DNA from: Bdellovibrionota bacterium
GTDB taxonomy: Bacteria > Bdellovibrionota > Bdellovibrionia > Bdellovibrionales > UBA840
Assembly (NCBI GenBank): GCA_036140815.1
Contig: JAYZXX010000071.1
Coordinates: 9,561 to 73,560 of the forward strand
Length of the DNA: 64,000 nucleotides
Direction: 5' to 3'
The notes beneath the pieces are model-generated. The model was not told the DNA's origin, did not search any database, and saw only the letters and a program-made list of their open reading frames with translations. The translations under genes and the position numbers were made by a program. This document shows positions 7,319-63,194 of this stretch, one piece after another. Each line of letters starts with the position of its first letter. The first letter of the stretch is position 1.

Positions 7319-7591
7319 CTAGTACCTCACGTATTCGGCGATATTAGACATGAGAGTAATTGTAAATTGTGACAACTCATCAACCATCCAAGGTCCCCCA
7401 AGCGTCAAAACAATACCAACTACGATAATCTTAGGAATGAAGGTTAGTGTCGCTTCGTTAATTTGTGTGATGGCCTGAAATACTGAAACCATCAAACCGA
7501 TGATAAGCGCTGATAATAGCAAAGGCGCTGCCACCATTGCAGTCGTGCGAAGAGCCATTCCGCCTAAATTGTAGATTAGATCTTCACCCAT
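7319..7591 (-). CDS. fliQ: Flagellar export apparatus protein FliQ
   Basis: 90-aa two-TM protein between fliP and fliR, with typical FliQ sequence (LLLSALIIGLMVSVFQAITQINEATLTFIPK). Confidence 0.9.
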   Translation of the reverse strand: MGEDLIYNLGGMALRTTAMVAAPLLLSALIIGLMVSVFQAITQINEATLTFIPKIIVVGIVLTLGGPWMVDELSQFTITLMSNIAEYVRY

Positions 7592-14382: not shown

Positions 14383-15586
14383 TTTTCACCCCTAAGTCTT
14401 CAGACGGTTTTTTCGGGTCGGTAAATTCCTCAAGAATTTCATCTGGCTTTGCATTTTTCATCGCTTCAGGATCAACACTATAGAAATAAACTTCTTCTGT
14501 TTCTTTGCCTAAAACTTTCATTCTATATTTGTTCAAAACGGAAATACTTGCTTCAACAGTAGAGTTGTCAGCCATATAAATATCTGTAAACACTTCGTTT
14601 GTAATAAATCTTAAAGCTTCTTGTAAAATTGAATCCCGAACTTCCTTAGATAGTCTTCCATGCTCAGAATACTCTAAACCTAGTTTTTCCATTTGAATTG
14701 CTAGGAAGCTTTTGGCAAAATAACTACCCATCACATAAAAATGATCGTCTTTTACATAATTCGTATCTGAAAAAGGAGCATAAGACTTTGGCTTTTCAGA
14801 AAAGTTTCTGTAAGAGGAATGACCTCTAGCAAAGTGGTTCATAATTTCAGAACTACCTGTCATTAAAAAAGCAAATAGATCGGAGAAACCTTCATTGTAT
14901 GTTCTCACTGCTCCCATTCTTGCCATGGCTTTGTTACCTTCAGAGAAAAACATTTTCGTTAATGGATTATAGCCATTCTTTTCTTTAAACAATTTATTAG
15001 CATAGGCATGATAGTAAATCGAATGAAAAGCCTCATGATACCAAACATCAGCATTCATGGTTGCTGGAATGTATTGATCTTCATAAACCACCATACCAAA
15101 GAAGTCTCCAGCAGAAGAATAAAAGGCATTATTTTTAGACGGAACAGAGTGAAGCACAATCCTTCTTGGCCAGTAGTTTTCAAAGGTCCAATTTAAATCA
15201 TCCATTTTCTCTTTTAAGGTGTACATCAAATAGTACATGGTGGCAGCTTCTAAACTCTCAATTTGCCCTGCAGGAATATAGACGTCGCCTTTTTTTACAA
15301 ACTCAAAATTGGGAGATTCACCATCAATTAAAAACTTCCCATCGTAAGCACTATATTTAATATCATTTGAACTAACATAGTATTTAAAGTTCACAAAATC
15401 AGATTCCAAAGTTTCCATGCTTTTAGGCCGCGGTACTTCTACTACTGTTAATTTATATTCCCCATCATCTTGGAGAACTGGAACCTGCATTTTAATCATT
15501 TCGCTGTCCGGCTCAGGCTTGCTACATGAGACATTCACTGCAAGCATTACCAAACAAACTATAGACAGTTTAAGAATATTTTTCAT
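14372..15586 (-). CDS. Secreted/lipoprotein-like putative zinc metalloprotease (HExxH)
   Basis: Signal sequence ending in Cys (VNVSC) and a single HExxH motif (WYHEAFHSIYYH). No further family assignment was possible by eye. Confidence 0.45.
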   Translation of the reverse strand: MKNILKLSIVCLVMLAVNVSCSKPEPDSEMIKMQVPVLQDDGEYKLTVVEVPRPKSMETLESDFVNFKYYVSSNDIKYSAYDGKFLIDGESPNFEFVKKGDVYIPAGQIESLEAATMYYLMYTLKEKMDDLNWTFENYWPRRIVLHSVPSKNNAFYSSAGDFFGMVVYEDQYIPATMNADVWYHEAFHSIYYHAYANKLFKEKNGYNPLTKMFFSEGNKAMARMGAVRTYNEGFSDLFAFLMTGSSEIMNHFARGHSSYRNFSEKPKSYAPFSDTNYVKDDHFYVMGSYFAKSFLAIQMEKLGLEYSEHGRLSKEVRDSILQEALRFITNEVFTDIYMADNSTVEASISVLNKYRMKVLGKETEEVYFYSVDPEAMKNAKPDEILEEFTDPKKPSEDLGVKNEE

Positions 15587-15719
15587 AATTACACCCGTAG
15601 GATCGCACCTACACCCAATTTAAATTTCCACAAATATTAGTAGCAATCTTCGCGCCAAGAAAGTTGTTTTTTTACTAAGAGACCTTGTAAGAATTGCATT
15701 TATTCGTTAGTTTAGCGCC

Positions 15720-26277: not shown

Positions 26278-27189
26278 CTAACTAATCACTCCAATGATGT
26301 CAGTCTCACTAACTACAACCAAGTCGCGACCTTCGGCTTGAATTACATTTCCTGCATATTCGTTAAACAAAACTTTATCGCCAACCTTTACATCTAAAGG
26401 CAAAACTTTGCCTTTTTTCTTCAAAGCGCCTTTTCCTATAGCAAGAACTTCTGCTTTGTCTCTTTTTTGAGGAGCACTATCGATTAAAATCAAACCAGAA
26501 TCTGTCGTTTCTTTTAATGGCTCTAGTTCTAACAATACCTTATCATACAATGGAGCTAAATATTTGCTCCAATCAACACTTGGCTTGGATGCATTTACTG
26601 GAGCCTTAGCTGCTTTTTTCACAGCAGCTGTCGTTTTTGCGGTAGGCTTCTTGGCCTTCTGAGTTTTCGGTGCTGGTTTCGAAACTTTTGCTTTTTTAGT
26701 CGGAACTTTCTTTGAAACTGCTTTTTTGGTAGCTTTTTTCGCAACTTTTTTCTTTGTTGCTTTCTTTGTCGCCGTTTTCTTAGTCACCTTTTTCTTCGCA
26801 ACCTTCTTTTTTGCAGCTTTCTTGGTCACTTTTTTCTTTGAGACTTTAGGAGCCACCTTTTTTTTAGTAGCTTTTTTCTTAATCGGCTTTTTTGCGGCCT
26901 TCTTTTTAGTTACTTTTTTTGCAGCATTCTTTTTTACTGCTTTCTTCGCCACTTTCTTTTTAGTAGCTTTTTTTGCAACTTTTTTCTTTGTAGCCTTCTT
27001 AACCACTTTCTTTTTAGTCACCTTTTTTGCAGTTTTCTTTTTAACCGCCTTCTTCGCTACCTTCTTTTTGGCAGCTTTTTTTGCAACTTTTTTCTTTGTA
27101 ACTTTCTTAGCCACTTTCTTTGCAGCTTTTTTCTTAGTCGCCTTCTTTGCTGTAGGCTTTTTAGCTAATTTCTTCTTTTTCTTTGCCAT
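26278..27189 (-). CDS. Fusion protein: ~210-aa Lys/Ala-rich histone-H1-like repeat region plus a C-terminal GroES (Cpn10)-fold domain
   Basis: Start moved to the internal ATG at 27189 (AGGAG 5 nt upstream; the ORF-track start at 27246 lacks an RBS). The last 93 aa align by eye with E. coli GroES (PLYDKVLL.., ETTDSGLILIDS.., EVLAIGKG, PLDVKVGDKVLFNEY, ETDIIGVI). Confidence 0.75.
   Translation of the reverse strand: MAKKKKKLAKKPTAKKATKKKAAKKVAKKVTKKKVAKKAAKKKVAKKAVKKKTAKKVTKKKVVKKATKKKVAKKATKKKVAKKAVKKNAAKKVTKKKAAKKPIKKKATKKKVAPKVSKKKVTKKAAKKKVAKKKVTKKTATKKATKKKVAKKATKKAVSKKVPTKKAKVSKPAPKTQKAKKPTAKTTAAVKKAAKAPVNASKPSVDWSKYLAPLYDKVLLELEPLKETTDSGLILIDSAPQKRDKAEVLAIGKGALKKKGKVLPLDVKVGDKVLFNEYAGNVIQAEGRDLVVVSETDIIGVIS
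26620..27186. repeat. Degenerate short tandem repeats encoding the KKxxAKK tail
   Basis: Reiterated gcaacttttttctttgt / agccttcttt-type units on the + strand. They also create a spurious 189-aa antisense ORF. Confidence 0.8.
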
Positions 27190-27468
27190 GACAAACTCCT
27201 GTTTACAAAACCGACTATATGAAACTAAAACACAGCTCAGTGTCAAGCTGCTTCGGGCCTATCCCTTTCGGTTTACACACTATAGCAGAGGATAGATACT
27301 TTAAAAAATAAGTGAATAACATTGAAAGCCTATTCGAAAATCAAAAATTCTCAAGCCCGTTTGTATTCTCCCCTAAAGTAAAGCGGGTAAAGAACCAAAA
27401 CAGAAAATTTGAATTCATTCTCATGCAAATGCATGACTCCATCATTTCTTAGCATTAGGATAGCAAGC

Positions 27469-47180: not shown

Positions 47181-47411
47181 TTAAATATTGATATTTAACC
47201 CAGATCTCACTGATTTGGATTGTGCTAAGCGAAAACGAAGTGGCTTACTTGCCGTAACCACCAATGCAACCATTTCACCTAATTTAAACTTTTGATGGCT
47301 TTCATTTTTAAGACGAAGAAGTTGCCCCTGAAAACTTACAATCATCGAGCCGTCACTTTGCAGCTCGATGAGTTTCGCCATTACGATTTGATTTACTCTA
47401 AGGTTTAGCAT
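47181..47411 (-). CDS. Small hypothetical protein translationally coupled to the upstream gene
   Basis: 76 aa. Its ATG overlaps the upstream gene's stop codon by a single nucleotide (TAATG; the A at 47411 is shared). Confidence 0.4.
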   Translation of the reverse strand: MLNLRVNQIVMAKLIELQSDGSMIVSFQGQLLRLKNESHQKFKLGEMVALVVTASKPLRFRLAQSKSVRSGLNINI

Positions 47412-48979
47412 TAGCCTAAATGGTCATTCGGGTTTGGTTTAATGTCTGGAAAATCAAGGCTAGACATAGAAGAAATCTCATCACTCGAGCGTATCTTTGA
47501 CCTTACTTGCCCTAGTTTCTTTCTTTCATTTTGTCTTTCACGAATTTTACTTACCAAGTCCATTTGGAACTTTGGCTTTTGTTGTGAAGTGGCACCGGTA
47601 ATTGTTGCCTCAGTGCTTTTCTTTGGAGCTTTATTCACAAGATCCCAGGCTTGTTGATCTTCTTTTGTTTCCACTTTTCCATACGTAGATGGGTGTGAAA
47701 TCTTATAAGTATCTTCCTTTTTACCGAAGCTAAGTGGATCAATTTCATCTAAAGCTTGATTCATTTCAGGGTCAGCAAACATACTCGAAGAGACCACTGG
47801 TTGTTGCATCAACTTTTTCAGTTCTTGTTCTTTTTGTTCTTCGCTTAAAGGAGTTTCGGTAGTTCGCAACTCCCCTTGGTTTTCTTCTACAAATTCTATG
47901 TTATTTGGAAGCTTTGTAGACTCTTCTTCTTGAGCATTAATTCTATCCATTGCTTTATCTATACTTTGAGTAGAATTTGTATTTTGAGAAAACTCTGTAG
48001 TATCGTCCGCATCAAAGTCTTCAAAAGATAAGTCTTCCTCAGAAATCTGCTGGTTTTGCTCGGCCAACTGTTCACGAAAAATCTCGCCCACTTCATCATT
48101 ACTGCTGATGAAATCATCCCAATCAGCATCACCATCATATTCCTTATCGTTTTTTGTACTTAGCTCATTCAACTCACTGCGAATGACAGACTTTACTTCT
48201 TCTAGTGGTTGAAAAACCGACTGAACGGCACTGCTCATACCACTTTTAATTTTATTGGCAAATTCAGCCTTTTTCGCATCTTCTTTCTCAACCTCTTCAC
48301 AGGCACTGCGAAACTGTTGTCCAAGCTCAGCCAAGCGATCCATAGAAACTTCTGGGTTTTTAAAAGTTTCTTCGAAACGATCGCCAAAATCACTGTCTTG
48401 ATGAGTACGCTTATTGATCAACTCTTGCTTAGCTTGAGAGAAACTCACATCAGACTGAGCTTTATTTTGAGCCCAATTAGGTAAATCCTTTTCACTAAAC
48501 ATTAAGCGATCTTTATTTACCTTTGCTATAAACTCAATCTCGGCAATGTCTAAATCAACCCTTTTGGCAATCTCTTCAGCGCTGTAACCCTCATGGGCAA
48601 GCTTAGCTGCTTCGATGTACTTTTTAGAACTTTGCCTTTCAATGATTTCCTCATGCGGAATCTTGTCTTCAAAAACTTCAGCAAGTTCAATACTTTTCGC
48701 CATGGACTGCTCCAGAAGAAAAATCGTTTCTTTGGCAGTAAAAATGGTTTCTTGTACCTGAGCACCTTTGTTTTCAATCAAACGAAGCATTTGTTTTACT
48801 TGGTTGTCTGTACGATCTGATAGATCTTCTAATACAGATATTTTAGACTGAAGAAGTTGTAGACCTTTACTTAGACGTGGGTCTTCTTTTGCTGGACGAT
48901 TCATACGAAACCAAATAACACCAACCCCAATCAACGCGAACACATTCGTACTAATAAATAGATAATCCATCACCGACAT
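47411..48979 (-). CDS. Membrane-anchored acidic coiled-coil protein (hypothetical)
   Basis: N-terminal TM, a helical region with a small HTH-like stretch (AAKLAHEGYSAEEIAKRVDLDIAEIEFI), then a long D/E/Q-rich tail. GGGAGG RBS. Confidence 0.55.
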   Translation of the reverse strand: MSVMDYLFISTNVFALIGVGVIWFRMNRPAKEDPRLSKGLQLLQSKISVLEDLSDRTDNQVKQMLRLIENKGAQVQETIFTAKETIFLLEQSMAKSIELAEVFEDKIPHEEIIERQSSKKYIEAAKLAHEGYSAEEIAKRVDLDIAEIEFIAKVNKDRLMFSEKDLPNWAQNKAQSDVSFSQAKQELINKRTHQDSDFGDRFEETFKNPEVSMDRLAELGQQFRSACEEVEKEDAKKAEFANKIKSGMSSAVQSVFQPLEEVKSVIRSELNELSTKNDKEYDGDADWDDFISSNDEVGEIFREQLAEQNQQISEEDLSFEDFDADDTTEFSQNTNSTQSIDKAMDRINAQEEESTKLPNNIEFVEENQGELRTTETPLSEEQKEQELKKLMQQPVVSSSMFADPEMNQALDEIDPLSFGKKEDTYKISHPSTYGKVETKEDQQAWDLVNKAPKKSTEATITGATSQQKPKFQMDLVSKIRERQNERKKLGQVRSKIRSSDEISSMSSLDFPDIKPNPNDHLG

Positions 48980-51476: not shown

Positions 51477-51508
51477 AAATAAAAACGGCAGAATGCATTT
51501 TCTGCCGT
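51477..51508 (-). terminator. Rho-independent terminator closing the TPR/GT9 operon
   Basis: 8-bp stem acggcaga/tctgccgt (51485-51492, 51501-51508). The + strand aaataaaaa before it gives a U-tract on the minus transcript, 36 nt after the stop of the 140-aa gene. Confidence 0.7.
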
Positions 51509-51543
51509 AGAAACTTACAATAAAATGTTCAGAGAAAAAATGA

Positions 51544-51966
51544 TTAAGCCAATTTTTCTACAAATTTTTGCCAACTTTGAAGACTTTCCACCAATTCTTC
51601 TTCCATGACATCCGCTAAAGCCAAATAGTCTTCATGTCCATAGGCTTTTAACATGGCGTTTAACGAAGTTTTAAACAAAGGCTCTGTATTCTGCCAAATT
51701 GCATAGTTTTGAACCCAACGCTCTTTTAAGGCCTCATTTTCCTTAGTAATAAACTGTAAAGTGATCATTGTAGACATCAAGGTTTGAATTCCACTAAGAC
51801 ACTCATCAAATTCAAGGCTCAACTGTGACGTAAAACCGAGTCGAAACTCTGTCGCTAAATGATCGATCTCAGTAATAATCTCGGTCACCAATTTTTGAGA
51901 CTGATTTACCACGGTCTTAATTTGCTCTTCTGCGCTTAGATTACCTAATTGTTCGTTCATTGACAT
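51544..51966 (-). CDS. Helical hypothetical protein (last gene of the TPR/GT9 operon)
   Basis: 140-aa ORF overlapping the upstream GT9 gene by 26 nt. No motif recognised. Confidence 0.5.
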   Translation of the reverse strand: MSMNEQLGNLSAEEQIKTVVNQSQKLVTEIITEIDHLATEFRLGFTSQLSLEFDECLSGIQTLMSTMITLQFITKENEALKERWVQNYAIWQNTEPLFKTSLNAMLKAYGHEDYLALADVMEEELVESLQSWQKFVEKLA

Positions 51967-53440
51967 TTGTATTCTCCTCGATATTTATATTATCGCCGGT
52001 ATAGACAGATAAAATTTTCGCTAAAGTTTCATGAATGGCAAAGTAGCTTGCCACAATTTTCTTCTTCTCCATGGGCCCGATTCGTAATTTTTCGGTTTGA
52101 TACCAATCCACAACTGGTGCAAGTTCTGGCACCATCATTAAAAGCTTTTCCACCAACTGATCTACATTTTGCAAAACTCTTTCATTTTCTTCGTTTTGTT
52201 CTTTTCGTAAAATAGCAGTTAACTGCTGAAGGCTAATGGCATTGAGTTCTTGCAGTTGTTTAAATCCTTCAATGCTCTCTAAACGATATGGAACTGGAAA
52301 GTCTTCGCCCAAATAAATCGCACGAATCATTTTCCAGCAAAATAATTGGTGAGGATTGTTTTCAACATATTCATAAGCTGAAAAAGAATCCTTAACGACA
52401 ATCATTTCATCAGATGGAATTTCATTCTCCAGCATACTCTGAATATCTTTACAAATAACATCAGAACCTAAAGCCTCAAAATTACCAACCCCACGGATTC
52501 TACTTCCTGCCGCTTTAGGACCTGTTTCCCAAAACCGAACAAAAGCATTACTTAAATTATAAGTAGCTGTACCGGTTAAGGAAGCGATATGAATGGGAGC
52601 ACTGTCTAAACCCACTAATAAGCTGGCCTCTTTGATGACTGGAAACAAGTCGATCAATTTTGTTTTACCCACTAAAGAAATAATTTTATTTCCTCTAACG
52701 GTTAGCTGGATATTTTTAGCAATATCCTGATCAATTTCAGCGCCAATTAAAACAATCTTATGATCGATTTGCTGACTAAGACGTCGCATCACATTCATCC
52801 ACTTTTCTTGGCTAAGTGATTTCCGCGTAGTGGAGGCCGCCAAGTGTACAACTATATAGTCTTCGTCACCAATATACTCACGAACCAAAGGTGGAATCTG
52901 ATGTGCTACCTCTTTGGTATAATCTTCTTGGGTTAATTCAACCCCGGCAACTTCAGCAAATAAGTCATTCACATGGAATCGATTGTATTTACTCACTCCA
53001 GTTTGCGCATAAAAGTAAGCCGAAGGATCATCATCTATTCTTAAGAAAGCATCTTCGTGCCTTGAGTAGCCTTTTACTTTTGCTCCAGAGTTTTCAATGC
53101 ACTTTACTAAAAAGGAGCTACTCGGAGAAAAACTGAGATTAATAATTTCATCATAGTTCTCTTCTTGTAAATCCATTAGAAAGTCATTCAATTCTTCCAT
53201 TCCCGCTTTTAGACAGTCTTTGTCAGACAGATCATTTTTCAACAAAGCACGAAACACATTCATCATAGGCATTTCAATGACTTGATCTAATTCTGATAGC
53301 CCCTCACATGCACTTGCAAATCGAGGACGAACTAGCATATGAATTTTTGCACCAGGATACTGCCGACGTAAAGCCCTAACTGTTGGCCACGTACTAAAAA
53401 TATCACCGAGTCTTGTTAGTTGTAGAATCAGTATTTTCAT
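51941..53440 (-). CDS. Long glycosyltransferase family 9 (heptosyltransferase-fold) protein with a ~150-aa C-terminal extension
   Basis: GT9 N-terminus MKILILQLTRLGDIFSTWPTVRAL (compare RfaF MKILVIGPSWVGDMMM). Donor-site region LVGKTKLIDLFPVIKEASLLVGLDSAPIHIASLTG resembles the GT9 region of the form GKT..L..........NDSG.MH.A.A. Confidence 0.7.
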   Translation of the reverse strand: MKILILQLTRLGDIFSTWPTVRALRRQYPGAKIHMLVRPRFASACEGLSELDQVIEMPMMNVFRALLKNDLSDKDCLKAGMEELNDFLMDLQEENYDEIINLSFSPSSSFLVKCIENSGAKVKGYSRHEDAFLRIDDDPSAYFYAQTGVSKYNRFHVNDLFAEVAGVELTQEDYTKEVAHQIPPLVREYIGDEDYIVVHLAASTTRKSLSQEKWMNVMRRLSQQIDHKIVLIGAEIDQDIAKNIQLTVRGNKIISLVGKTKLIDLFPVIKEASLLVGLDSAPIHIASLTGTATYNLSNAFVRFWETGPKAAGSRIRGVGNFEALGSDVICKDIQSMLENEIPSDEMIVVKDSFSAYEYVENNPHQLFCWKMIRAIYLGEDFPVPYRLESIEGFKQLQELNAISLQQLTAILRKEQNEENERVLQNVDQLVEKLLMMVPELAPVVDWYQTEKLRIGPMEKKKIVASYFAIHETLAKILSVYTGDNINIEENTNVNERTIR

Positions 53441-53585
53441 TGGGTAACTGCTCCTTCAAAAGCTCTTTCATTAAAAGTAATTTTTGGACCTCAGGACTTA
53501 CTCCTCCCGTCAAAATCTGTTCACGGGCCGTTTTCAAAGTAAGATCAATTAGTCTTTCCATTTTGTTAATAGCATCTTGATTCAT
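53403..53585 (-). CDS. 60-aa hypothetical protein wedged between the two GT9 genes
   Basis: Start overlaps the upstream stop by 4 nt and its end overlaps the downstream start by 38 nt. Coding status is unproven. Confidence 0.35.
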   Translation of the reverse strand: MNQDAINKMERLIDLTLKTAREQILTGGVSPEVQKLLLMKELLKEQLPNENTDSTTNKTR

Positions 53586-55228
53586 AAAATCTCCATATAG
53601 TCGATGCGAATCATTTCACTTAGTTTTCTTTCAATTTTAATTATGTGATTCATATTATCTAAAACTCTACAAGTAGCTGAGTCTTCGTGCTGCCCAGTAT
53701 CCATCTCTCCTTGAATCGCTTCAATGCAGAGCTGTTCAAAGGCAGGCAAATCTTGGTTCAAGCTTCTATTGCGATCAAACCACATATTCACTGCTTGGAA
53801 TATTTTTTCACGATCGCCAATGCTTTTCCGAGTTTTAGCGCTTGGGCTTAAACTACGAATCAACTCTTCTGATTCTAGTTCCATTCCCAGTAAAATAGCT
53901 TCAAACTTTTCTAGAACTGGTCGAAGGTTCTCAGGACTTGTGTATGCTTTCTCGATCAAATACCTGCGAATCACCTGGGCTTCTAAATCAAATCTTTGCC
54001 AATCCTCGACATTGCGCTCTTGTAACACAACTTGCCAAGATGCTTGGTGAAACATACTTTTCAAGTTTTCGGCAAGCGCTCCCTCGCCCAATCGACTGGC
54101 GAACCAGAAATTATTTTGTAAAAACTCGGTTCGATAAAAATTAACATCCTCAAAAAACTCTGACGCCAAAATATCAATGGCCATCCAATTTTTTTCCATA
54201 TGATGAAACATGGTATATCCCACCAAATCCGCCCCTATCATGTCTTGGCAAATAAAACTTGCGTTAGGACACTTCAAGCGATGACTGCATGGGGAACATT
54301 TTAAATTTGCCTGTAATACTAATGAATCTTCAGTATAGCTGCCCGTTTGATTGTATTGGCTAGAGCCTAGGCTTAACTCTAAAACTGGGGTTCTTGATCC
54401 AATGGCTAAATATTTTATAGCTGTATCGGGGGTTACCAAAAGCCTCGAATTGTGTATTAAGGCTTGAGCAGTTACTAAGTCGCAAGCCTTCACTTCTAGC
54501 TTCAAATTGCTTATATCGGATAATTCTGACAGTAGATTAGCTTCTTCGTCAGGGGCACATAGACACAGAATTTTTCGCTTTGAATCAAGTTGTCGATAGT
54601 AGCGAATCACCTCTTTCCATTTTCCAAAGGAAAAAGTCTTCTTCTCCTCATTGCTTGTCATTTGAATACATATGTACTCTTCCTGAGGAATACTAGCTTT
54701 AGTACTTTCCTCCAAATTCAAATCTTCAACAGTTTCAATGGAGTTCAAACCTAGTGCGGATCGATAGATATCAATTAAATGAAAAGCGGATACACCTTCA
54801 AAACTACCAATATCATTTAAGTACTGAATCCAAGGACTTCCATAATCAATGGCTGAATCAAATACTCTTGAGCCTATCACTCGATTTGGCTCCATATCTA
54901 AGGCACTCAAAAAATAGTGGCTTAAATGATTGTGTGTCAGAGATATCACTTTATCAAAATTTTCACTTTCAATTTTTTGTACAAGTTGTTCCAGTTCAAA
55001 AAAATTATTTAAAATATATTGATCTTTTCTCACTGCTACTTGCTGCATTTCCTTACGATCAATGGAAATCCAGTGGTCGACAAAGGGAAATAAACTTTTA
55101 GCAAATTCAAACTCTTTGTAGATTAAAACCTGAACTTCAGCGCCATTTTTTTGTTTATAACTACGAATCAACTCGCGCATCATCAAAAAGTCACCCAAAC
55201 GCATCAAAGAGATAAACAATGTTTTCAT
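53582..55228 (-). CDS. Long GT9-fold protein with a divergent donor site, a four-Cys cluster and a ~190-aa C-terminal extension
   Basis: GT9 N-terminus MKTLFISLMRLGDFLMMRELIRS. The equivalent donor region reads LLVTPDTAIKYLAIGSRTPVLEL (DSG/MH not conserved). Cys cluster CSPCSHRLKCPNASFIC. Confidence 0.65.
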   Translation of the reverse strand: MKTLFISLMRLGDFLMMRELIRSYKQKNGAEVQVLIYKEFEFAKSLFPFVDHWISIDRKEMQQVAVRKDQYILNNFFELEQLVQKIESENFDKVISLTHNHLSHYFLSALDMEPNRVIGSRVFDSAIDYGSPWIQYLNDIGSFEGVSAFHLIDIYRSALGLNSIETVEDLNLEESTKASIPQEEYICIQMTSNEEKKTFSFGKWKEVIRYYRQLDSKRKILCLCAPDEEANLLSELSDISNLKLEVKACDLVTAQALIHNSRLLVTPDTAIKYLAIGSRTPVLELSLGSSQYNQTGSYTEDSLVLQANLKCSPCSHRLKCPNASFICQDMIGADLVGYTMFHHMEKNWMAIDILASEFFEDVNFYRTEFLQNNFWFASRLGEGALAENLKSMFHQASWQVVLQERNVEDWQRFDLEAQVIRRYLIEKAYTSPENLRPVLEKFEAILLGMELESEELIRSLSPSAKTRKSIGDREKIFQAVNMWFDRNRSLNQDLPAFEQLCIEAIQGEMDTGQHEDSATCRVLDNMNHIIKIERKLSEMIRIDYMEIL

Positions 55229-55815
55229 TTTAAAATTTCCGCCAGTACATTTAGAAGGTTATAGTTTCTATCCATCGGTAGTGCCTTGCTATAATTAACA
55301 AGCTCTCTATCCAAAAATATTTTATTTTCCATTTCTCTTTTACTATCTAAACTCAATGAAATTCGATTTAAAGCTCTCTCTAAGCCTTCTTTATTTCGAC
55401 CAGATAGATAGAAAAGAGCCTCTTCGTATTCTTCAGTATGCTGTTGAATACTTGCTTGATGAAACAGGACTTGAAATCCACCCTTGAAACTCTGTTCAAC
55501 TATATTTAGCAGTTCTTCTTTATTAGTTATGACTTCATAGCCTTTTGTTTTCGCAAACTCAGCAATTTCTAAGTTTATCTCAAAGATGAGAAAGCTTTTG
55601 GCATCTTTAGTTTTCTTCAACTCATCGATGTGAAAACCTGCTCCAAATCCAAAAACAATAAATTCATCACACTTTCGATCCTGTCTCTCTACCCAAGACC
55701 TAGCTTCTGCAAGAGGCTTTCTCTTTGATGCAAGCCTTCGACCATTTAGAACTGGAATGGGACCGAACTCAGACTCTACAAATTCCAAGGCATCAGCCAT
55801 TTTGTGCCTCCACAA
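55225..55815 (-). CDS. Hypothetical protein resembling the N-terminal region of motility-accessory-factor (Maf/DUF115) proteins
   Basis: The pattern ...PVLNGRRLASKRKPLAEARSWVE...DEFIVFGFGAGFHIDEL recalls, from memory, the Maf/MptE-like N-terminus (G..lhS.ydP..EA..w.....vv.GfGlGyh...L). Unverified. Confidence 0.4.
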   Translation of the reverse strand: MWRHKMADALEFVESEFGPIPVLNGRRLASKRKPLAEARSWVERQDRKCDEFIVFGFGAGFHIDELKKTKDAKSFLIFEINLEIAEFAKTKGYEVITNKEELLNIVEQSFKGGFQVLFHQASIQQHTEEYEEALFYLSGRNKEGLERALNRISLSLDSKREMENKIFLDRELVNYSKALPMDRNYNLLNVLAEILK

Positions 55816-56722
55816 GATCCACTAACTTTCTTGCATCTTCACAGTCGGGATCAAAATTAAGAATTTTTTGAGCTTCCCAAAAAGCATATTCACGATATCC
55901 AGCTTGAAACAAAACACATGCAAACAGTAGATTTAACTCTTGATTGTATTCTCTCTGATTTAAGTATTTTTCTAGTTTTTCTAATGCATCATCATATCGG
56001 AAATCACTCATACTCCAGTGGGCCAACATTTTCAGATAAGAAGCATTGGCCTCGTCATAGTCGATGGCAGCTTTTAAGTTTGCCCAGGCCATCTCGGTTT
56101 CATCCTGCGCTTTGTATAACAAGGCCAGGCCCATTCTTGCTTTAGAGGATTTTGGATTAATCTGTAGAGCTTCGTAAAAGGATTTTATAGCTTCAGTGTA
56201 CCGCCCCATTTGAAAATAGAGACTTCCATAGTTAACACACAGTAAATCAGATTCGCTATGGATTCGCTGAGCGCGGTGATAGTATTCTTCAGCCTGTTCA
56301 AAATCCCCTTCGGTTAAACTAATATTTCCAAGATTTTTAAACATTTGGAAACTAGAGACAAAATCCTCAGCTTGTTCACATAATGCCTTGGTATAATAGG
56401 CTTTGGCTTTGCTCATATCCTTTTGTTCATAAAAGAAATTAGCAGTACGAACATAATTTTCAAAGCTAGGATGAAATTCGGCGAGTTTTTCGAAGCTAGT
56501 TCGAGCATTTACTAACTCATTTGATTTTTCAAAGCATTCAGCCAATCTCTGTAGATACTCTGGCCTATCAAAATTCATATTATGCAAACGAGCATAAATG
56601 GCTCTCGCCAATGTAAAATCAGAATTTGCATATAAAAGCTCGGCATTTCGAAAGAAATTCTCTTCTAGACTTTCTTCCGGTGCATTTACGACTTCCTGTC
56701 TTTGATAATGATCTATCTGCAT
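55793..56722 (-). CDS. Tetratricopeptide-repeat protein (first gene of the operon)
   Basis: At least six 34-aa TPR-like units (A..Y...L..........Y..LA.......A pattern). AGGAAGG RBS. Confidence 0.75.
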   Translation of the reverse strand: MQIDHYQRQEVVNAPEESLEENFFRNAELLYANSDFTLARAIYARLHNMNFDRPEYLQRLAECFEKSNELVNARTSFEKLAEFHPSFENYVRTANFFYEQKDMSKAKAYYTKALCEQAEDFVSSFQMFKNLGNISLTEGDFEQAEEYYHRAQRIHSESDLLCVNYGSLYFQMGRYTEAIKSFYEALQINPKSSKARMGLALLYKAQDETEMAWANLKAAIDYDEANASYLKMLAHWSMSDFRYDDALEKLEKYLNQREYNQELNLLFACVLFQAGYREYAFWEAQKILNFDPDCEDARKLVDLVEAQNG

Positions 56723-56758
56723 TCTTTTTCCTTCCTGGAAATATCCAATGCTTTAGAA

Positions 56759-56774
56759 AGCAAAGCCGGTGCCA
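56759..56774 (-). promoter_or_regulatory. Near-consensus sigma-54 promoter for the TPR/GT9 operon
   Basis: The minus strand reads TGGCAC-CGGCT-TTGCT (consensus TGGCAC-N5-TTGCW). The -12 element lies about 37 nt upstream of the ATG at 56722. Confidence 0.7.
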
Positions 56775-56803
56775 ATTTCAGGTCAAAAGCATGCTAGTTT
56801 AAT

Positions 56804-56848
56804 AAAAAAAACGACGAAAGATTGACCATGGTCATTTCGATCGCCGTC
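56804..56848 (-). terminator. Rho-independent terminator of the fliD-fliS-X operon
   Basis: Long imperfect hairpin (acgacga..cgaaag-ttgacc-at-ggtca-tttcg..tcgccgt). It is preceded on + by 8 A, which gives a U8 tail on the minus transcript. Confidence 0.75.
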
Positions 56849-56884: not shown

Positions 56885-57304
56885 TTAAGCCTCTTGTTCG
56901 AAAGTACGCTTCACCGCACCACTATGGTATTTTCCAACCGCCTTTTTACTTAAACTTGTATCCATATATTCTTTCATAACTCGGTTCTTTTCTTTTTCAA
57001 TTAGTGAAAGTAACTGTAGATCTTGATCTAGAATTTTCTCAATAATACTGTCTTTCGAGCTTAAGAGTTCTGCGATATCGTCTTCTTGCGCTTCCACTTC
57101 TTTCACCGTCAATGTCATCAAAGATTCATCAATCTTTTTATCTAGTTCAGCAACTACTTCTAGAATTGCTTGGCGTGTTTCGTAGAAGGCATCTAGGGAT
57201 TCATAATTATTTTGCGCAAATAGGACCATCTCTCTTTCATTGAGATTGTAGTATTTTACCAAGTACTTGTTTCTTTCATTCATTAAATTTGTCATGCGAT
57301 TCAT
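56885..57304 (-). CDS. Hypothetical helical protein downstream of fliS (FliT/FlgN-like position)
   Basis: 139 aa, predicted all-helical and acidic. The functional call rests on synteny only. Confidence 0.4.
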   Translation of the reverse strand: MNRMTNLMNERNKYLVKYYNLNEREMVLFAQNNYESLDAFYETRQAILEVVAELDKKIDESLMTLTVKEVEAQEDDIAELLSSKDSIIEKILDQDLQLLSLIEKEKNRVMKEYMDTSLSKKAVGKYHSGAVKRTFEQEA

Positions 57305-57320: not shown

Positions 57321-57749
57321 TTAGCCCGCTGATTTCGAGCCGTCCCCTGATTTATTTTGTTGCTTTTCTTTCTTAAGACCTTCTACTGCTTCTACCCAAC
57401 CTTCATAAAGGGTGTTTAGAATTTTCAAGGCGTTATCTAGATACTGTTTGTCTCCAGAGATATTTGCCTGAGTGTATTGATCCGTTATAAACATATAGAG
57501 TTGTTCGAGTTGTGAGGCGATTTCCCCACCCACTTTATGATCCAAAGTATTCATAAGCTCTAAGACAATGTCATATGCTCTACCAATGTTGGTACCACGC
57601 TCGGCTACATCCCCAGCCTCGATGGCCATAATTCCTCGCTTGGTAAACTTGATTGCCCCCTCGTAAAGCATAAGTAGGATTTTCTCTCTGCTTGCACTTT
57701 GTACTGAAGTCGCTTTGTACTTTTGTGATCCCATTTTGTTATAACTCAT
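57321..57749 (-). CDS. fliS: Flagellin-specific export chaperone FliS
   Basis: YKATSVQSASREKILLMLYEGAIKFTKRG...IGRAYDIVLELMNTLD...IASQLEQLYMFI is typical FliS. Confidence 0.9.
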   Translation of the reverse strand: MSYNKMGSQKYKATSVQSASREKILLMLYEGAIKFTKRGIMAIEAGDVAERGTNIGRAYDIVLELMNTLDHKVGGEIASQLEQLYMFITDQYTQANISGDKQYLDNALKILNTLYEGWVEAVEGLKKEKQQNKSGDGSKSAG

Positions 57750-57772: not shown

Positions 57773-59131
57773 TTATCCAGCGCCGCCCGCTACTGATCCA
57801 GCGAGAAACTGTCCTTGCGCTTGTATGCCAGCCATCTTTTCCTCTAAAGCGGCAAATTTTCTTCTTAAATTTTGTTCTTTTTGAGTGATTCGTCTTTCCA
57901 AGCTTTCCAAACGATTGTCCATTTGTTCAATCTGTTGCTGAAGTCCTCTTCTACGGTTATTCAAAGGGCCAAAGCTATTGTCATTTAATGTACGAATCAT
58001 ATTTCTTAATTTGGGGATAAATCCTGTGTTAAAGCCATCCCCCGCCAAAAACATTTGAACCTGTTCTGGATTTTGTTTTAACTTGGTATTAAACTTTTCT
58101 TCGTTGTAATCCAAAGTACCGCCACGGGTGAAGGTAATGCCGATTTCGTTCAAAGTTCGAATATTACTTCCTGTTCCGATTACTTGAGATTGAAGCAATT
58201 GACGAACTCTTGACTCGATGGTTCTTAAAACCACATCTCCACCAAGTGTTGCGCTAGTATCTGACTCTTGTGTTAAGGAGTTTTGCTGTTGGATAAAACC
58301 TAAAACAGAATTAATGGAATCTACAAAGGATTTCACCTTTCCACTCACTACTTCCATGTCTTCTTTCACATTTAAACTAATGGTTTTTCCTGGCGAAGCT
58401 TGTTTTAGCTCGAGAGTCACACCTGGAATCAAATCATCCAAAACATTGTCTTGAACATCAATTTCAAAACCATCTAGTTTGATCTTTCCGTTTTTGGCTT
58501 CACGAGATTGCTCAAAAAATACATCTTGGTCACCATCTAAAAAATACAAAGTTGGGTAATCTACTTGGTTTTCTTTACCAACATCTTTCGCCGTTAGCAT
58601 TAAACGATAAGGAGCATCTGGGTCCGTTTGGTCATTAATGATAGTAGCTTGTAAGCCAACTCCAGCACGATTGATGGCATTTGCTGCCCCTTCTAAAGTG
58701 CTATTCTCCCCACTAATATATACTTCCTTTTCTCCATCAGCCGTTTGAAAAGAAAAATACCCAACACCAATTTGAGTTTCATTTTTGTCGGGAAAGCCGT
58801 TTGTAATGGCCGCCGCCTTTTGTGCAAGTTGCATTACTTCAATGGCCCAGTTTCCTGTTCGCACCGAGTTTGGATCAACAGTACCACCAATGATACTTGG
58901 GTCAGCTGATTCTAGCTTTATATCTGTGAAACCTCTCGCACTGGCTAAACCGCCAATAGAGTTTTGAATGTCAGAAACTTTAGTGGCAAGGTCATCCACA
59001 AGCTTGAGTTTATTCTCAACCTTGCTCTTTTTACCTTTTATTGTTTGTAATGGGATTTTTTCAGCATCTATGAGCTGTTCCACGATATTCGGTGGTAATC
59101 CCGAGGCCATGCCTCCAAACGATATTGCCAA
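57773..59131 (-). CDS. fliD: Flagellar filament cap protein FliD
   Basis: N-terminus ISFGGMASGLPPNIVEQLIDAEKIPLQ and a C-terminal coiled coil. TTG start with an AGGAGG RBS 5 nt upstream. Confidence 0.9.
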   Translation of the reverse strand: MAISFGGMASGLPPNIVEQLIDAEKIPLQTIKGKKSKVENKLKLVDDLATKVSDIQNSIGGLASARGFTDIKLESADPSIIGGTVDPNSVRTGNWAIEVMQLAQKAAAITNGFPDKNETQIGVGYFSFQTADGEKEVYISGENSTLEGAANAINRAGVGLQATIINDQTDPDAPYRLMLTAKDVGKENQVDYPTLYFLDGDQDVFFEQSREAKNGKIKLDGFEIDVQDNVLDDLIPGVTLELKQASPGKTISLNVKEDMEVVSGKVKSFVDSINSVLGFIQQQNSLTQESDTSATLGGDVVLRTIESRVRQLLQSQVIGTGSNIRTLNEIGITFTRGGTLDYNEEKFNTKLKQNPEQVQMFLAGDGFNTGFIPKLRNMIRTLNDNSFGPLNNRRRGLQQQIEQMDNRLESLERRITQKEQNLRRKFAALEEKMAGIQAQGQFLAGSVAGGAG

Positions 59132-59487: not shown

Positions 59488-61206
59488 ATGAGAGAAATCA
59501 TCAAATACTTAGGACCTCTACTTAGGCATTACCGTTATCAAATGATTGGACTATTGATTTTAGGATCAATGATCTCAGGACTAAGAGGTCTTACTCCTGA
59601 GCTTTCAAGACGATTGATCGACTTATGGCGTGAAGGAGACGGCTCCGGCAATATAAGTTTTCCAATTGGTATTGCAGCTATCTGGTTTATTTCTAGTATC
59701 TTTCGATATATTCACTCCTACAAAATTAGAGTAATTTCAGAAAAAATCATGGGCTTTCTTCGCATGAACCTAATGCGAAAGTATTTGGATTTCGATTTAA
59801 AATTTATGCATTCTTTAGACACAGGTTCTGGTGGTTTGATCTCTAGAATCTCTAATGAAATCCTGCACGTCCAATTTGGAATTCAAAAAATGACCGATAT
59901 GATGAAGGAGCCTTTTGCCGCTTTATTTATGTTTGGTTATTTATTAATGATCGATTGGAAGTTAACGATTTTTATTGTAGCTACCCTACCCATCGTTGGA
60001 GTCCTGTTAAAGAATATTGCCAAGTCCATTCGAAAGTACATTACCAAGAACTTTACTGACATGGAGAACATTTCAAAAACTTTGAAAGAGTCTTTAGATG
60101 GCTCCCGTATTGTTAAATCCTACAATCTTCAAGGAGTTCTCGAAAAGCGTTTCAATAGTGAAGTTCAACAATACATTGATAATCGCAAGGTAGTGGTGAG
60201 TCGCGAAGAAGCTACAGGTCCAATTATTGAAAGCATTGGTGCTTTAGGATTTTCGGCTCTTCTGGTTTATATTGGTAACCAAATTATCGCCGGTCAATTG
60301 ACGGTGGCTGACTTTATGGGATTTTCTTTTGCCGTTGCAATTCTACAAGATGCAGTAAAGAGAATTCAGCAAGCTTATGTTGCGATCCAACAAGCCGTTG
60401 TTAGTTTACAAAGATACCACGAAATGTTGGGTGAAGAAAATCATGTAAAAGACACAGATAGCCCCATTCCATTTCCTAACAACTGGAAAAGCATTGAATT
60501 TAAAAATGTAACCTTCAGCTACATTGAAGGTAAACCAGTTTTAAAGAATTTTAATCTTTCGGTAAAACGCGGTGAAAGTATTGCGCTAGTTGGAAGCAGT
60601 GGAAGCGGTAAATCCACCACCGTTAATTTACTTCAGAGGTTTTATGATCCTGATAGTGGCCAAATTTTAGTGGATGGTATTGATATTAAGAGATTTTCGT
60701 TAGAAGACTTAAGAAAAAATATCGCAATGGTTAGCCAAGATGTATTCTTATTTAATGATAGTGTTGAATTTAACATTCGAGCTGGAAACCTAGAAGATGA
60801 GAGCTCGAGCGTTGAAGAGGCTGCAACTTTAGCAAATGCCCATAATTTTATTTCGGCAAAAGAAAATGCCTACAACACTCGAGTGGGAGAAGCTGGTTCA
60901 CAATTTTCTGGTGGAGAAAAACAGCGAATCAGTATTGCTAGAGCTATTTTTAAAAATGCACCTATCTTAGTTTTAGATGAAGCTACAAGTGCATTGGATT
61001 CTGAAAGTGAGCGTGAAGTTCAAAAGGGAATTAGCCAACTGATGAAAGGTAAAACTTCTTTCGTCATCGCTCACCGTTTATCAACTGTGCAAGATGCCGA
61101 CCGTATCATTGTAATGAAGTTTGGAGAAATCATCGAGGCTGGGAACCACGATGAGTTAATGCAAAAACAGGGGGAATACCATCAACTCAGAGAGCTACAA
61201 CACTAA
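59488..61206 (+). CDS. MsbA-like fused ABC exporter (six-TM domain plus ATPase)
   Basis: Walker A GSSGSGKST, signature FSGGEKQRISIARA and Walker B LVLDEATSALD. N-terminal type-I exporter TMD. Confidence 0.85.
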   Translation: MREIIKYLGPLLRHYRYQMIGLLILGSMISGLRGLTPELSRRLIDLWREGDGSGNISFPIGIAAIWFISSIFRYIHSYKIRVISEKIMGFLRMNLMRKYLDFDLKFMHSLDTGSGGLISRISNEILHVQFGIQKMTDMMKEPFAALFMFGYLLMIDWKLTIFIVATLPIVGVLLKNIAKSIRKYITKNFTDMENISKTLKESLDGSRIVKSYNLQGVLEKRFNSEVQQYIDNRKVVVSREEATGPIIESIGALGFSALLVYIGNQIIAGQLTVADFMGFSFAVAILQDAVKRIQQAYVAIQQAVVSLQRYHEMLGEENHVKDTDSPIPFPNNWKSIEFKNVTFSYIEGKPVLKNFNLSVKRGESIALVGSSGSGKSTTVNLLQRFYDPDSGQILVDGIDIKRFSLEDLRKNIAMVSQDVFLFNDSVEFNIRAGNLEDESSSVEEAATLANAHNFISAKENAYNTRVGEAGSQFSGGEKQRISIARAIFKNAPILVLDEATSALDSESEREVQKGISQLMKGKTSFVIAHRLSTVQDADRIIVMKFGEIIEAGNHDELMQKQGEYHQLRELQH

Positions 61207-61210
61207 ACTA

Positions 61211-61783
61211 TTGTATCTTCACGGTTTTAACTCCTCTCCCTTTTCTCCAAAAGGAGAGGCGGTTAGAAAATGTGTCGCGGATAAATATCCAAAGATAGAG
61301 TTAGTTGCTCCAGAACTCCCCCCTTATCCAATGGCCGCACTTGAATTGATAAAAGAAAAAATTCAGGACATTGCCAAAACTCAAAGACCTCTGATCATTG
61401 CCTCTAGTATGGGAGGTTTTTTCACGAACTTTATTGCCCATGACATACCTGTATCTGCCTGTTTTGTAAATCCTGGTGTAGATCCTTTTAATCGAGTGAA
61501 AGAATATATAGGCACTGACATCACCAATCCTTATTCTAAAAAAATATATCGTCTCAATGAAAAACACATCGAAGAGTTAAAGTCCTTATATAAAAATAGT
61601 GTAGCGCCAAACTCTGACTTCTATCTTTTCTTAAAAACCGGAGACGAAGTCTTAGACTATCAACACGCAGCTAATTTATACAAAGATCATAAACTTCATA
61701 TAGATCAAGGTGGTGATCATAGCTTTCACGATTTTGATGATTATGTAGAAGAAATGATTGAATGGTTAATCGCTAGAAAGTAG
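61211..61783 (+). CDS. YqiA/YcfP-family esterase (UPF0227 alpha/beta hydrolase)
   Basis: N-terminus YLHGFNSSP, nucleophile SSMGG and a C-terminal GGDHSF. TTG start 4 nt after the ABC gene stop. Confidence 0.65.
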   Translation: MYLHGFNSSPFSPKGEAVRKCVADKYPKIELVAPELPPYPMAALELIKEKIQDIAKTQRPLIIASSMGGFFTNFIAHDIPVSACFVNPGVDPFNRVKEYIGTDITNPYSKKIYRLNEKHIEELKSLYKNSVAPNSDFYLFLKTGDEVLDYQHAANLYKDHKLHIDQGGDHSFHDFDDYVEEMIEWLIARK

Positions 61784-61802: not shown

Positions 61803-62186
61803 TTAAATGGCCTTATTCAATATACCACCACGTTTATCGTCGGTATCGGCATTGGCTGCCCTAGATGACTCTATTGCCTGAATTGCAGTGAGTCTTCTTA
61901 CAACTTTTCCTTTGTAGTCTTTCACTAGGAAAATTAAAGCCTCGTTTTGTTTTTCCATAATCACACTCAGATTATTCTTTTTTATTCCTGGGTGATTCTT
62001 TAAGTACTCAAGTGCCTTTTGCAAATCTTCTTCGGTAAAATTTTGCTGTTCTTCATGACCACCGTGATTTCCTTGTTGAGGATCACGATCCGCAGAAGTA
62101 TCCATCGCTTTGGTTTCTTTTTTCACCGAAGACACTTTATCAAGCAAAGGATTTGAAATGTTACTTATACTTTTTAAGTTCATCAT
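61803..62186 (-). CDS. flaG: FlaG-family flagellar protein
   Basis: 127 aa directly downstream of flagellin. C-terminal half resembles FlaG (LSVIMEKQNEALIFLVKDYKGKVVRRL). Confidence 0.6.
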   Translation of the reverse strand: MMNLKSISNISNPLLDKVSSVKKETKAMDTSADRDPQQGNHGGHEEQQNFTEEDLQKALEYLKNHPGIKKNNLSVIMEKQNEALIFLVKDYKGKVVRRLTAIQAIESSRAANADTDDKRGGILNKAI

Positions 62187-62357: not shown

Positions 62358-63194
62358 TTAACCGATCAAACGTAATGCTGATTGTGGTTGTGCATTTGCT
62401 TGAGCCAAGATACCAGTTGAAGCATTCAATAGTACCTGGTTTTGTGTTAACTCAGCAGTTGCCTGTGCGATATCTGTATCACGGATACGAGAGTTTGCAG
62501 CCGATACGTTCTCAATGGCAGTACCTAAGTTATTTTGCGTTGAGATCAATCGGTTTTGAACCGCACCTAGTGTTGCTCGGTGACCATTCACAGTAAACTG
62601 TGCATCGTCAATTATCGTTAGGGCTTCTCGAGCTCCTTCTTTTGTCGAATAATCTAATCCTTCCATACTTAGTTCACTTAATCTTACCGATTGTGCTCCA
62701 GAGTCAAAAGTAATTCTATCTTGGAAGTCATCATTGTTAATATCAATCTGGAAACTAAACTCACCACCAGAACCATCTAGAAGGTTGGTTGTTCCATATT
62801 TCGTTGTTTGTGCAATACGATCCATCTCAAGCTTTAATTGTTGAACCTCTTTATCAAGAAATTGTCTCTCCCTGTCACCTACTGTGTCAGAAGCCGCCTG
62901 TACACCTAGCTCTCTCAATCGTACTAATATATTGGAAACCTCATTTAAACCACCCTCAGCAACTTGAACCATGGACTGACCATCCATTGCGTTTCTTTGT
63001 GCTACTGAATAACCTTTTACTTGGGCTTTTAAACTTTCACTCAATGCTAAACCAGCTGCATCGTCGGCTGCCTTAGTGATACGATCACCAGAAGATAGTT
63101 GCGCAAAGGTTTTATCAATTTTTCTTTGCGAAGCCGCTAATGAATTCTGTGCATTTAAACTTGCTACGTTGGTTGATACTCTTAATCCACTCAT
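62358..63194 (-). CDS. fliC: Flagellin (short, 278 aa)
   Basis: N-terminus MSGLRVSTNVASLNAQNSL...RITKAADDAAGLA and C-terminus ...ELTQNQVLLNASTGILAQANAQPQSALRLIG. Confidence 0.95.
   Translation of the reverse strand: MSGLRVSTNVASLNAQNSLAASQRKIDKTFAQLSSGDRITKAADDAAGLALSESLKAQVKGYSVAQRNAMDGQSMVQVAEGGLNEVSNILVRLRELGVQAASDTVGDRERQFLDKEVQQLKLEMDRIAQTTKYGTTNLLDGSGGEFSFQIDINNDDFQDRITFDSGAQSVRLSELSMEGLDYSTKEGAREALTIIDDAQFTVNGHRATLGAVQNRLISTQNNLGTAIENVSAANSRIRDTDIAQATAELTQNQVLLNASTGILAQANAQPQSALRLIG

Follow-up and report, generated by a model that had tools for sequence, protein, structure and literature searches.

A sigma-54-preceded operon with two long GT9 proteins beside fliD and fliS in Bdellovibrionales: a candidate flagellum-associated glycosylation module

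Background

Where the transferase of a flagellar glycosylation system has been identified it is, as far as is known, a Maf, an FlmG-type or a GT2-type enzyme. In a 64,000-nucleotide (nt) stretch of a Bdellovibrionota genome (assembly GCA_036140815.1, contig JAYZXX010000071.1, positions 9,561 to 73,560; hereafter the window), six overlapping minus-strand open reading frames (ORFs; 56722-51544) lie directly after the fliD, fliS and fliT-like genes, and two of the encoded proteins belong, by sequence, to glycosyltransferase family 9 (GT9), like the lipopolysaccharide (LPS) heptosyltransferases WaaC, WaaF and WaaQ. What do two such proteins do in a flagellar locus, and is their acceptor, if they have one, a flagellar protein or LPS in the sheath around the flagellum? 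An earlier reading of the DNA sequence alone (the sequence-only reading) had proposed that these genes form a sigma-54-driven operon for flagellar glycosylation or for modification of the sheath. In this paper, we have analysed the organization of the operon, the relationships and predicted structures of its products and its distribution among sequenced relatives, and we have weighed the flagellar hypothesis against the other explanations that the data allow. Literature searches by locus tag and by DUF8042/TP0873 returned no publications on the function of the module genes; the module is conserved across a whole bacterial order and is unstudied.

Results

Organization of the operon and its promoter

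The six genes encode a tetratricopeptide repeat (TPR) protein, the two GT9 proteins, which we call GT9L and GT9S, and three smaller proteins designated p196, p60 and p140 according to their length in amino acids (aa). Their ORFs and the signals that flank them, in the order of transcription, are as follows.

56802-56848, minus strand: intrinsic terminator of the preceding fliD-fliS-fliT-like unit, a hairpin followed by U8 (RNA fold -21.3 kcal/mol, z = -3.05)
56759-56774, minus strand: predicted sigma-54 (RpoN) -24/-12 promoter element, TGGCACCGGCTTTGCT, 37 nt upstream of the start codon of the TPR gene
55793-56722, minus strand: TPR protein gene, 309 aa
55225-55815, minus strand: p196 gene, 196 aa
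53582-55228, minus strand: GT9L gene, 548 aa
53403-53585, minus strand: p60 gene, 60 aa; its stop overlaps the start of GT9S by 38 nt
51941-53440, minus strand: GT9S gene, 499 aa
51544-51966, minus strand: p140 gene, 140 aa
51485-51508, minus strand: intrinsic terminator of the six-gene operon, a 9-bp stem followed by a T-run, from a terminator scan (fold z = -3.2)

All six ORFs are where the sequence-only reading had placed them, and their successive overlaps of 23, 4, 4, 38 and 26 nt, which span the range of 4 to 38 nt that it gave, fit translational coupling within an operon. The terminator that it had drawn at the distal end (51477-51508) was recovered by the scan, while the one at 56802-56848 separates the fliD-fliS-fliT-like unit from the GT9 module.

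The proposed promoter proved to be the sole perfect match to TGGCAC-N5-TTGCW within the window. If up to one mismatch is allowed, the window contains five matches against 1.9 expected, a count equalled in 6 of 100 shuffles, and such match statistics within one window are by themselves not significant. For this predicted element the decisive evidence is comparative and comes from the orthologous loci: of 59 related loci, 55 have TGGCA[C/T]-N5-TTGCT just upstream of their TPR orthologue, compared with 6% of random windows of equal size. An element of the same class, with one mismatch, is located 47 nt upstream of fliL, in agreement with what had been said of the fliL operon. One of the five matches, at 7518-7533, was discounted, as it sits inside fliQ.

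Another one-mismatch element, TGGCGCGAAGATTGCT (15642-15657, minus strand), is located 56 nt upstream of a 404-aa ORF without a Pfam match (14372-15586), which is followed by two more small minus-strand ORFs; this region may be another sigma-54 flagellar unit.

Two paralogous GT9 proteins with a retained catalytic set

The assignment of the 548- and 499-aa proteins to GT9 is borne out by Pfam, as both score above the cut-off of 22 bits for Glyco_transf_9 (PF01075; GT9L 38.8 bits, GT9S 59.4 bits). The family profiles of GT9L and GT9S match WaaC, WaaF and the structure 3tov (E 1e-17 and E 4e-12), and they match each other far better than they match WaaC, for which profile searches of the PDB gave E 1e-17 and 4e-6. 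By hhalign, the two families are paralogues along the entire GT-B core (probability 100%, E 6e-44). An AlphaFold (AF2) model of GT9S (pLDDT 88, pTM 0.85) places a GT-B core at residues 1 to ~350, and its top nine PDB matches, with target-normalised TM scores of 0.70-0.75, are 3tov (a GT9 protein of Veillonella), 1psw (WaaF) and WaaC entries.

In both families, the positions that correspond to WaaC D13, K192, E222, D261 and H266 show no or almost no variation. In a 24-member alignment of GT9S the invariant residues include D13 (the general base in WaaC), K207 and D279-S-x-P-x-H284, and in a 27-member alignment of GT9L they include G12, D13, K197, E228, D268 and T269, with H273 nearly invariant. 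There are two departures in the window: the WaaC Glu position is occupied by Asp237 in its GT9S, and residue 273 of its GT9L (54410-54412, minus strand), a near-invariant His within the family motif D-T-x-x-K-H-L-A, is Tyr, as it also is in the related locus L006. Tyr273 may hint at relaxed or altered donor binding by GT9L in the lineage of the window. The retained catalytic set as a whole argues for active, ADP-sugar-dependent transferases. By their sequences, by the predicted fold of GT9S and by their catalytic residues, both proteins are classed as GT9 members, sharing with WaaC, WaaF and WaaQ the GT9 sequence (PF01075), the GT-B fold, Asp13, the phosphate-binding Lys, the Glu position and the D-(S/T)-x3-H motif.

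They differ from WaaC, WaaF and WaaQ, however, in several respects. When tested against the NCBIfam equivalogs of LPS heptosyltransferases I, II and III (TIGR02193, TIGR02195, TIGR02201, RfaC, RfaF and RfaQ), GT9S reached at best 75.7 bits against a cut-off of 185.3 and 74.9 against 170.2, and GT9L at best 28.9 against 170.2, so that both remain at less than half of every cut-off; public names of homologues such as "LPS heptosyltransferase" or "RfaQ" are probably misleading. The module enzymes are also 150-200 aa longer and carry helical tails, and they are encoded without waa neighbours, in a sigma-54 operon within a flagellar locus, where they are coupled to a TPR protein and small helical proteins. 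Furthermore, the net charge of the N-terminal domain (N-domain) is -2 to -12 in 24 of 24 GT9S members, whereas WaaC, the single comparator, is strongly basic (+9); GT9L has a median of 0 and reaches up to +6. With one comparator, the acidic N-domain of GT9S is suggestive.

The long C-terminal tails noted in the sequence-only reading are present in both proteins, but they are traits of lineages and not additions peculiar to the source genome. In GT9L the core ends at about residue 345 and is followed by a variable helical tail of ~200 aa, which is nearly absent in lineages with a GT9L of 405-417 aa. GT9S ends in a conserved, family-specific helical bundle (approximately residues 363-498) with invariant residues of its own (W369, Y376, P438, W446 and E450). 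Among 1.84 billion representative proteins this tail matched only proteins of ~480-500 aa, at approximately residues 350-480, plus shorter chains, and none of 230 cluster representatives had it fused to another large protein. Homology between the two tails, or between either of them and the DUF8042-like protein described below, was not detected by hhalign.

A Cys-rich motif, C311-x2-C314-x-H316-x3-C320-x6-C327, is found only in GT9L. We considered whether it could correspond to the iron finger of TibC. TibC and AAH, the bacterial autotransporter heptosyltransferases (BAHT), carry out ADP-heptose-dependent O-heptosylation of proteins with a WaaC-like GT-B enzyme that has a catalytic Asp, and possess a Cys4 metal site for oligomerisation and substrate recognition (PMC4358343). 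The possibility was rejected, since TibC gave no match with either GT9 family profile at E <=10 and the Cys segment alone matches solely the tail of a WaaF model (E 0.012). TibC is also absent from the 50 best fold matches of the GT9S model. The motif lies at the end of the C-lobe, where it fits the Cys-rich C-terminal segment that the WaaF model has in common with GT9L, and not at the TibC insertion; because it matches only the WaaF tail and TibC is undetectable, it reads as an inherited GT9 feature. Neither the N-terminal beta-barrel nor the beta-hairpin thumb of TibC/AAH is evident in the module GT9s.

The accessory proteins

None of the six operon proteins has an obvious N-terminal signal peptide when inspected by eye, and all six products therefore look cytoplasmic. 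The first protein matches multiple TPR families of Pfam (E down to 4e-19), and a positional orthologue is present in 70 of 84 related loci by tblastn.

The true start of p196 is probably the ATG at 55800, which gives a protein of 191 aa; a 100% identical protein (P0121) is 191 aa long. p196 had been described as Maf-like, a description that holds only for part of the Maf N-terminal domain. It exceeds the cut-off of Maf_flag10_N (PF20157) narrowly (24.4 bits against 23.5), over 39 residues (residues 45-83; profile positions 108-146 of 228) around a GxGxG strand-loop and an acidic strand end. The positional orthologues of p196 are divided between Maf_flag10_N (12 of 28) and Methyltransf_25 (8 of 28), and through the same segment its family profile picks up, in the PDB, both methyltransferases, at E 0.016, and, at E 0.1, the Maf structure 5mu5. 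Its AF2 model (pLDDT 85) consists of a beta-hairpin and a truncated Rossmann core, for which the best folds are spermidine/spermine synthases, at a weak TM score of <=0.48. PF01973 (MptE-like/DUF115) was matched by none of the six proteins at E <=0.1. We have therefore rejected p196 as a Maf glycosyltransferase, as it lacks the MptE/DUF115 catalytic domain and its similarity to methyltransferase-fold proteins is equally weak.

p60 has no Pfam match, but a counterpart of 53-78 aa with conserved motifs occurs at the same position, overlapping the start of GT9S, in 52 loci (for instance at 9856-10038 of locus L003), with the pattern L..AL.RLEK...TQGY...KLK.L.EL.KEQ..NE.N. Only in the Bdellovibrio sensu stricto group is it absent, and a 57-nt gap is found there instead, with weak tblastn traces (loci L015, L027 and L071). 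Judged by this conservation, p60 is a real gene for a small, predicted helical protein.

Most relatives of p140 are 200-250 aa long and carry PF26154 (DUF8042) in precomputed Pfam annotation. p140 matches the KM01 orthologue by BLASTP (E 6e-7), and in the alignment the ADxLEYDL...LQxW motif is kept while the N-terminal beta domain is missing, so that p140 is, as predicted from its sequence, the helical C-terminal half of a DUF8042-like protein.

Distribution and synteny of the module

A scan of one genome per species for relatives of GT9S returned 169 stretches. Essentially all of the best 80 of these are titled Bdellovibrionales, Bdellovibrionaceae or Pseudobdellovibrionaceae, including strains of B. 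bacteriovorus, and the closest among the relatives listed is a Bdellovibrionaceae metagenome-assembled genome (MAG; 92% identity). As far as the searches reach, the module thus appears to be confined to one bacterial order. One MAG contig labelled 'Streptomyces griseus' (locus L047, CALQIT020000016.1) contains a complete Bdellovibrio-type flagellar and GT9 locus and is presumably mis-binned.

By tblastn, the loci with enough upstream flank show a single gene order: flagellin, FlaG-like, fliD, fliS, fliT-like, TPR, p196, GT9L, (p60), GT9S and DUF8042-like. In 66-67 of 84 loci, the ones whose upstream flank is long enough, the fliD, fliS and fliT-like genes were detected directly before the module. 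The sequence-only reading had named occurrence mainly in LPS-core clusters or in non-flagellated genomes as a reason to abandon the flagellar hypothesis. Wherever the available flank is long enough, the GT9S homologues follow fliD-fliS-fliT-like, and they were never found in a waa cluster, so that the hypothesis survives this preset test; likewise, no waa, kdt, lpx or LPS-core neighbours were seen in the window, for which the absence of waa/rfa genes had been claimed, or in the annotated loci of the relatives.

In most relatives the operon is longer: overlapping ORFs for a histidine kinase (~680 aa) and for a response regulator of a single domain (~118 aa) follow before rsmD is reached (for example, L001:12052-14417 and L003:12059-14472). 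Both genes are absent from the window and its closest relatives (loci L005 and L006). They appear to have been lost in the lineage of the window, where a terminator follows the DUF8042-like gene instead. GT9L is absent in a few lineages (loci L080, L081 and L061), and because these carry only TPR, p60 and GT9S, the three genes may constitute the minimal core of the module. In some lineages (loci L003:5250-6437, and L030, L032, L047, L065, L066, L068, L072, L078 and L082) an extra gene of 395-427 aa without a Pfam match lies between the fliT-like and TPR genes.

The counterpart in Bdellovibrio bacteriovorus HD100

In B. bacteriovorus HD100 the module corresponds to about Bd0614-Bd0618; a p60 gene is lacking in this strain. 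The consecutive UniProt accessions Q6MQ70 to Q6MQ63 denote FliS (Bd0611), the FliT-like protein (Bd0613), TPR, p196 (Bd0615), GT9L, GT9S, the DUF8042 protein and the histidine kinase (Bd0620), an order in the proteome tables that agrees with the gene order in the B. bacteriovorus loci. The p196 orthologue Bd0615 was detected with four peptides in the HD100 proteome, where it shares a raw abundance cluster with FliS, Bd0613 and the DUF2802 protein Bd0627; one subunit of the module is thus expressed together with FliS. In the same data Bd0613 is raised at 4-6 h of the predatory cycle. According to the HD100 proteome paper, flagellar proteins rise late in this cycle, when the flagella of the progeny form.

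Neighbouring genes in the window

The flagellar genes upstream of the operon are as follows.

62358-63194, minus strand: flagellin, 278 aa (Flagellin_N E 8e-38, Flagellin_C E 1e-21)
61803-62186, minus strand: gene in the FlaG position, next to flagellin
57773-59131, minus strand: fliD (FliD_C E 4e-47)
57321-57749, minus strand: fliS (FliS E 1e-37)
56885-57304, minus strand: FliT/FlgN-like gene, 139 aa (FliT E 9e-4, weak)

Between the FlaG-position gene and fliD there is a plus-strand pair (59488-61783) consisting of an MsbA-like ABC transporter ORF, so named from its sequence only, and a UPF0227 protein. Because flagellin, the FlaG-like gene and fliD are contiguous in the relatives, the pair looks like an insertion. 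Downstream of the module, a 522-aa protein (47411-48979, minus strand) combines a DUF2802 domain with a long acidic C-terminal region of low complexity; its HD100 orthologue is Bd0627. Elsewhere in the window, a 322-aa ORF with a TTG start (26278-27246, minus strand) has a Cpn10 (GroES) domain confined to residues 230-321, and its N-terminal part is probably an over-extended ORF call and not a true fusion.

Discussion

Comparison with known flagellar glycosylation systems

In the flagellin pseudaminic acid transferase FlmG of Caulobacter crescentus, a TPR domain binds the flagellins and the glycosyltransferase (GT) domain alone is insufficient (PMC7591256). Similarly, the module pairs a TPR protein with GT-B transferases in a flagellar context, and flagellins of a similarly small size are the substrate of FlmG. 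Unlike in FlmG, however, the TPR part is a separate polypeptide, the transferases are two GT9 proteins, with the nucleotide-heptose chemistry of that family, and not sialyltransferase-like, and there are no nonulosonic acid genes nearby. In Maf-1 and in Maf-2 with GlfM, a catalytic subunit is combined either with a TPR domain or with a specificity factor that is encoded in cis and forms a small four-helix bundle (bioRxiv 10.1101/2023.12.03.569772). The module follows the same modular logic, and p196 carries the GxGxG/acidic-strand segment of the Maf N-terminal domain. But no module protein has an MptE-like/DUF115 domain, p196 is 191-196 aa long compared with 666 residues in the Maf structure 5mu5, and it resembles methyltransferase-fold proteins equally well. 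The module thus falls outside the LPS heptosyltransferase equivalogs, Maf and the BAHT, and its resemblance to FlmG and Maf is one of modular logic only.

A possible machine for flagellar protein glycosylation

The reading that we favour, tentatively and at a strength a little short of even, is that the operon serves the cytoplasmic glycosylation of flagellin or of another exported flagellar protein. Under this proposal, it would encode a sigma-54-timed cytoplasmic machine dedicated to the flagellum, in which GT9L and GT9S would transfer an ADP-activated heptose or a related sugar to Ser/Thr residues of flagellin or another substrate of flagellar type III export, before FliS binding and export take place. 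For ADP-heptose-dependent heptosylation of a protein TibC/AAH would be the precedent. Recruitment of the protein substrate would fall to the separate TPR protein, in the way of the TPR domains in FlmG and Maf-1; specificity or assembly could be the task of p60, whose translation is coupled to that of GT9S, of the DUF8042-like p140 and of the helical tails, much as GlfM serves Maf-2; and p196 could be a scaffold or a nucleotide-binding subunit. We infer the enzymatic activity, the donor sugar and the acceptor from the features described above, and every accessory role by analogy. The position of the operon, its promoter class, the TPR partner, the small helical partners, the failed LPS equivalog tests and the acidic N-domain of GT9S are points in favour of a flagellar protein acceptor. 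The favoured reading also draws on the organization of the six overlapping genes between a promoter and a terminator, on the order-wide synteny with fliD-fliS, on the retained catalytic residues, on the abundance cluster that Bd0615 shares with FliS and on the lack of obvious signal peptides. More specifically, flagellin could be O-heptosylated by a complex of the two GT9 enzymes with specificity factors like GlfM; this proposal, which would be the first GT9-based case, is possible but doubtful.

A number of observations weigh against protein glycosylation. We know of no member of GT9 proper that glycosylates a protein, and TibC/AAH has no detectable sequence relationship to GT9L or GT9S. No sugar-nucleotide biosynthesis genes were seen in the window. 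Literature searches found no report of a glycosylated Bdellovibrio flagellin, and those on flagellin glycosylation, heptose and ADP-heptose genes in Bdellovibrio were uninformative. The charge argument has a single comparator behind it, and values of up to +6 occur among the N-domains of GT9L; the roles proposed for the accessory proteins are all analogies. Finally, the synteny also keeps the housekeeping genes rsmD, coaD and an aspC-like aminotransferase downstream, so that the conserved adjacency to fliD-fliS says less than at first sight and is no proof of a functional link.

Other explanations

This last point leads to a competing account, in which GT9L and GT9S are ordinary housekeeping LPS core heptosyltransferases that lie beside flagellar genes by chance, in a clade where gene order is stable enough to preserve the unrelated rsmD, coaD and aminotransferase as well. 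Public annotations agree with it, since they name the homologues ADP-heptose:LPS heptosyltransferase, RfaQ or heptosyltransferase III. Against it count the operon's own conserved sigma-54 promoter, which shares its class with the fliL element, the translational coupling to TPR, Maf-N-like and small helical genes, the conserved extra domains, the scores at less than half of the equivalog cut-offs, the acidic GT9S N-domain and the co-variation in abundance of the p196 orthologue with FliS; we consider this account hardly probable, and rank it last. An LPS acceptor can be reconciled with the flagellar setting if the GT9 pair supplies the membrane sheath with a core glycoform timed to the flagellum and is localised or regulated at the flagellated pole by the TPR and helical proteins, which we regard as unlikely. 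Every characterised GT9 enzyme uses LPS or a lipid-linked acceptor, and both proteins class as true GT9 members; the Cys-rich tail of GT9L fits only the WaaF model, the invariant Arg58 of GT9L is in the loop aligned to the R60-K64 segment of WaaC, and in some lineages the N-domain of GT9L is neutral or mildly basic. To our knowledge, on the other hand, no LPS core enzyme has been described as requiring a TPR or helical adaptor partner, and the scores far under the LPS heptosyltransferase cut-offs, the lack of waa, kdt and lpx neighbours in every locus and the uniformly acidic N-domain of GT9S, which does not resemble one that binds the anionic Kdo2-lipid A, do not fit either. Bdellovibrio flagella are sheathed, and the account of them in PMC7175336, citing Thomashow and Rittenberg 1985, states that the LPS of the sheath differs in composition from that of the outer membrane, which speaks for a sheath target; the difference given in that account, however, concerns fatty acids and not core sugars. 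The fully specified version, in which sigma-54 switches on two specialised GT9 core transferases during filament growth to produce a sheath-specific LPS glycoform while their partners hold them at the pole, is distinctly unlikely, and O-heptosylation of flagellin is more probable.

It is also conceivable that the GT9-fold proteins are mainly non-enzymatic and join the TPR and helical proteins in a complex with a structural or regulatory role in flagellar assembly, acting as a kinase-linked checkpoint or as a clutch or anti-repressor of the EpsE/GmaR kind. Glycosyltransferases with a second, regulatory role in flagella are exemplified by EpsE in Bacillus and GmaR in Listeria. The histidine kinase and single-domain response regulator genes with which the operon goes on in most relatives would suit such a complex, as would the replacement of the near-invariant His273 by Tyr in the GT9L of the window, the variable tail of GT9L and its absence from loci L080, L081 and L061. 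But the module persists in the lineage of the window without the kinase and regulator genes, and neither family varies at Asp13, the Lys or the D-(S/T) motif over a divergence to 35-40% identity, which is hard to explain without catalysis; we hold this explanation to be very unlikely.

Conclusions

The module is best filed as a candidate flagellum-associated glycosylation module whose transferases come from another family and whose organisation is split over several subunits. The hypothesis is directly testable in B. bacteriovorus HD100, which carries the module and for which established methods of gene deletion and proteomics exist. Should the sheath LPS be the target, the module would bear on the long-open question of how the flagellar sheath is built and differentiated, and a sheath-specific glycoform, if real, would be the first genetic handle on a sheath composition unlike that of the outer membrane. 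If the favoured reading, glycosylation of a flagellar protein, is true, this GT9-derived two-enzyme system with its separate TPR and small helical partners would extend GT9 to protein acceptors, and flagellar modification would gain a new enzyme family and probably also a new sugar chemistry.

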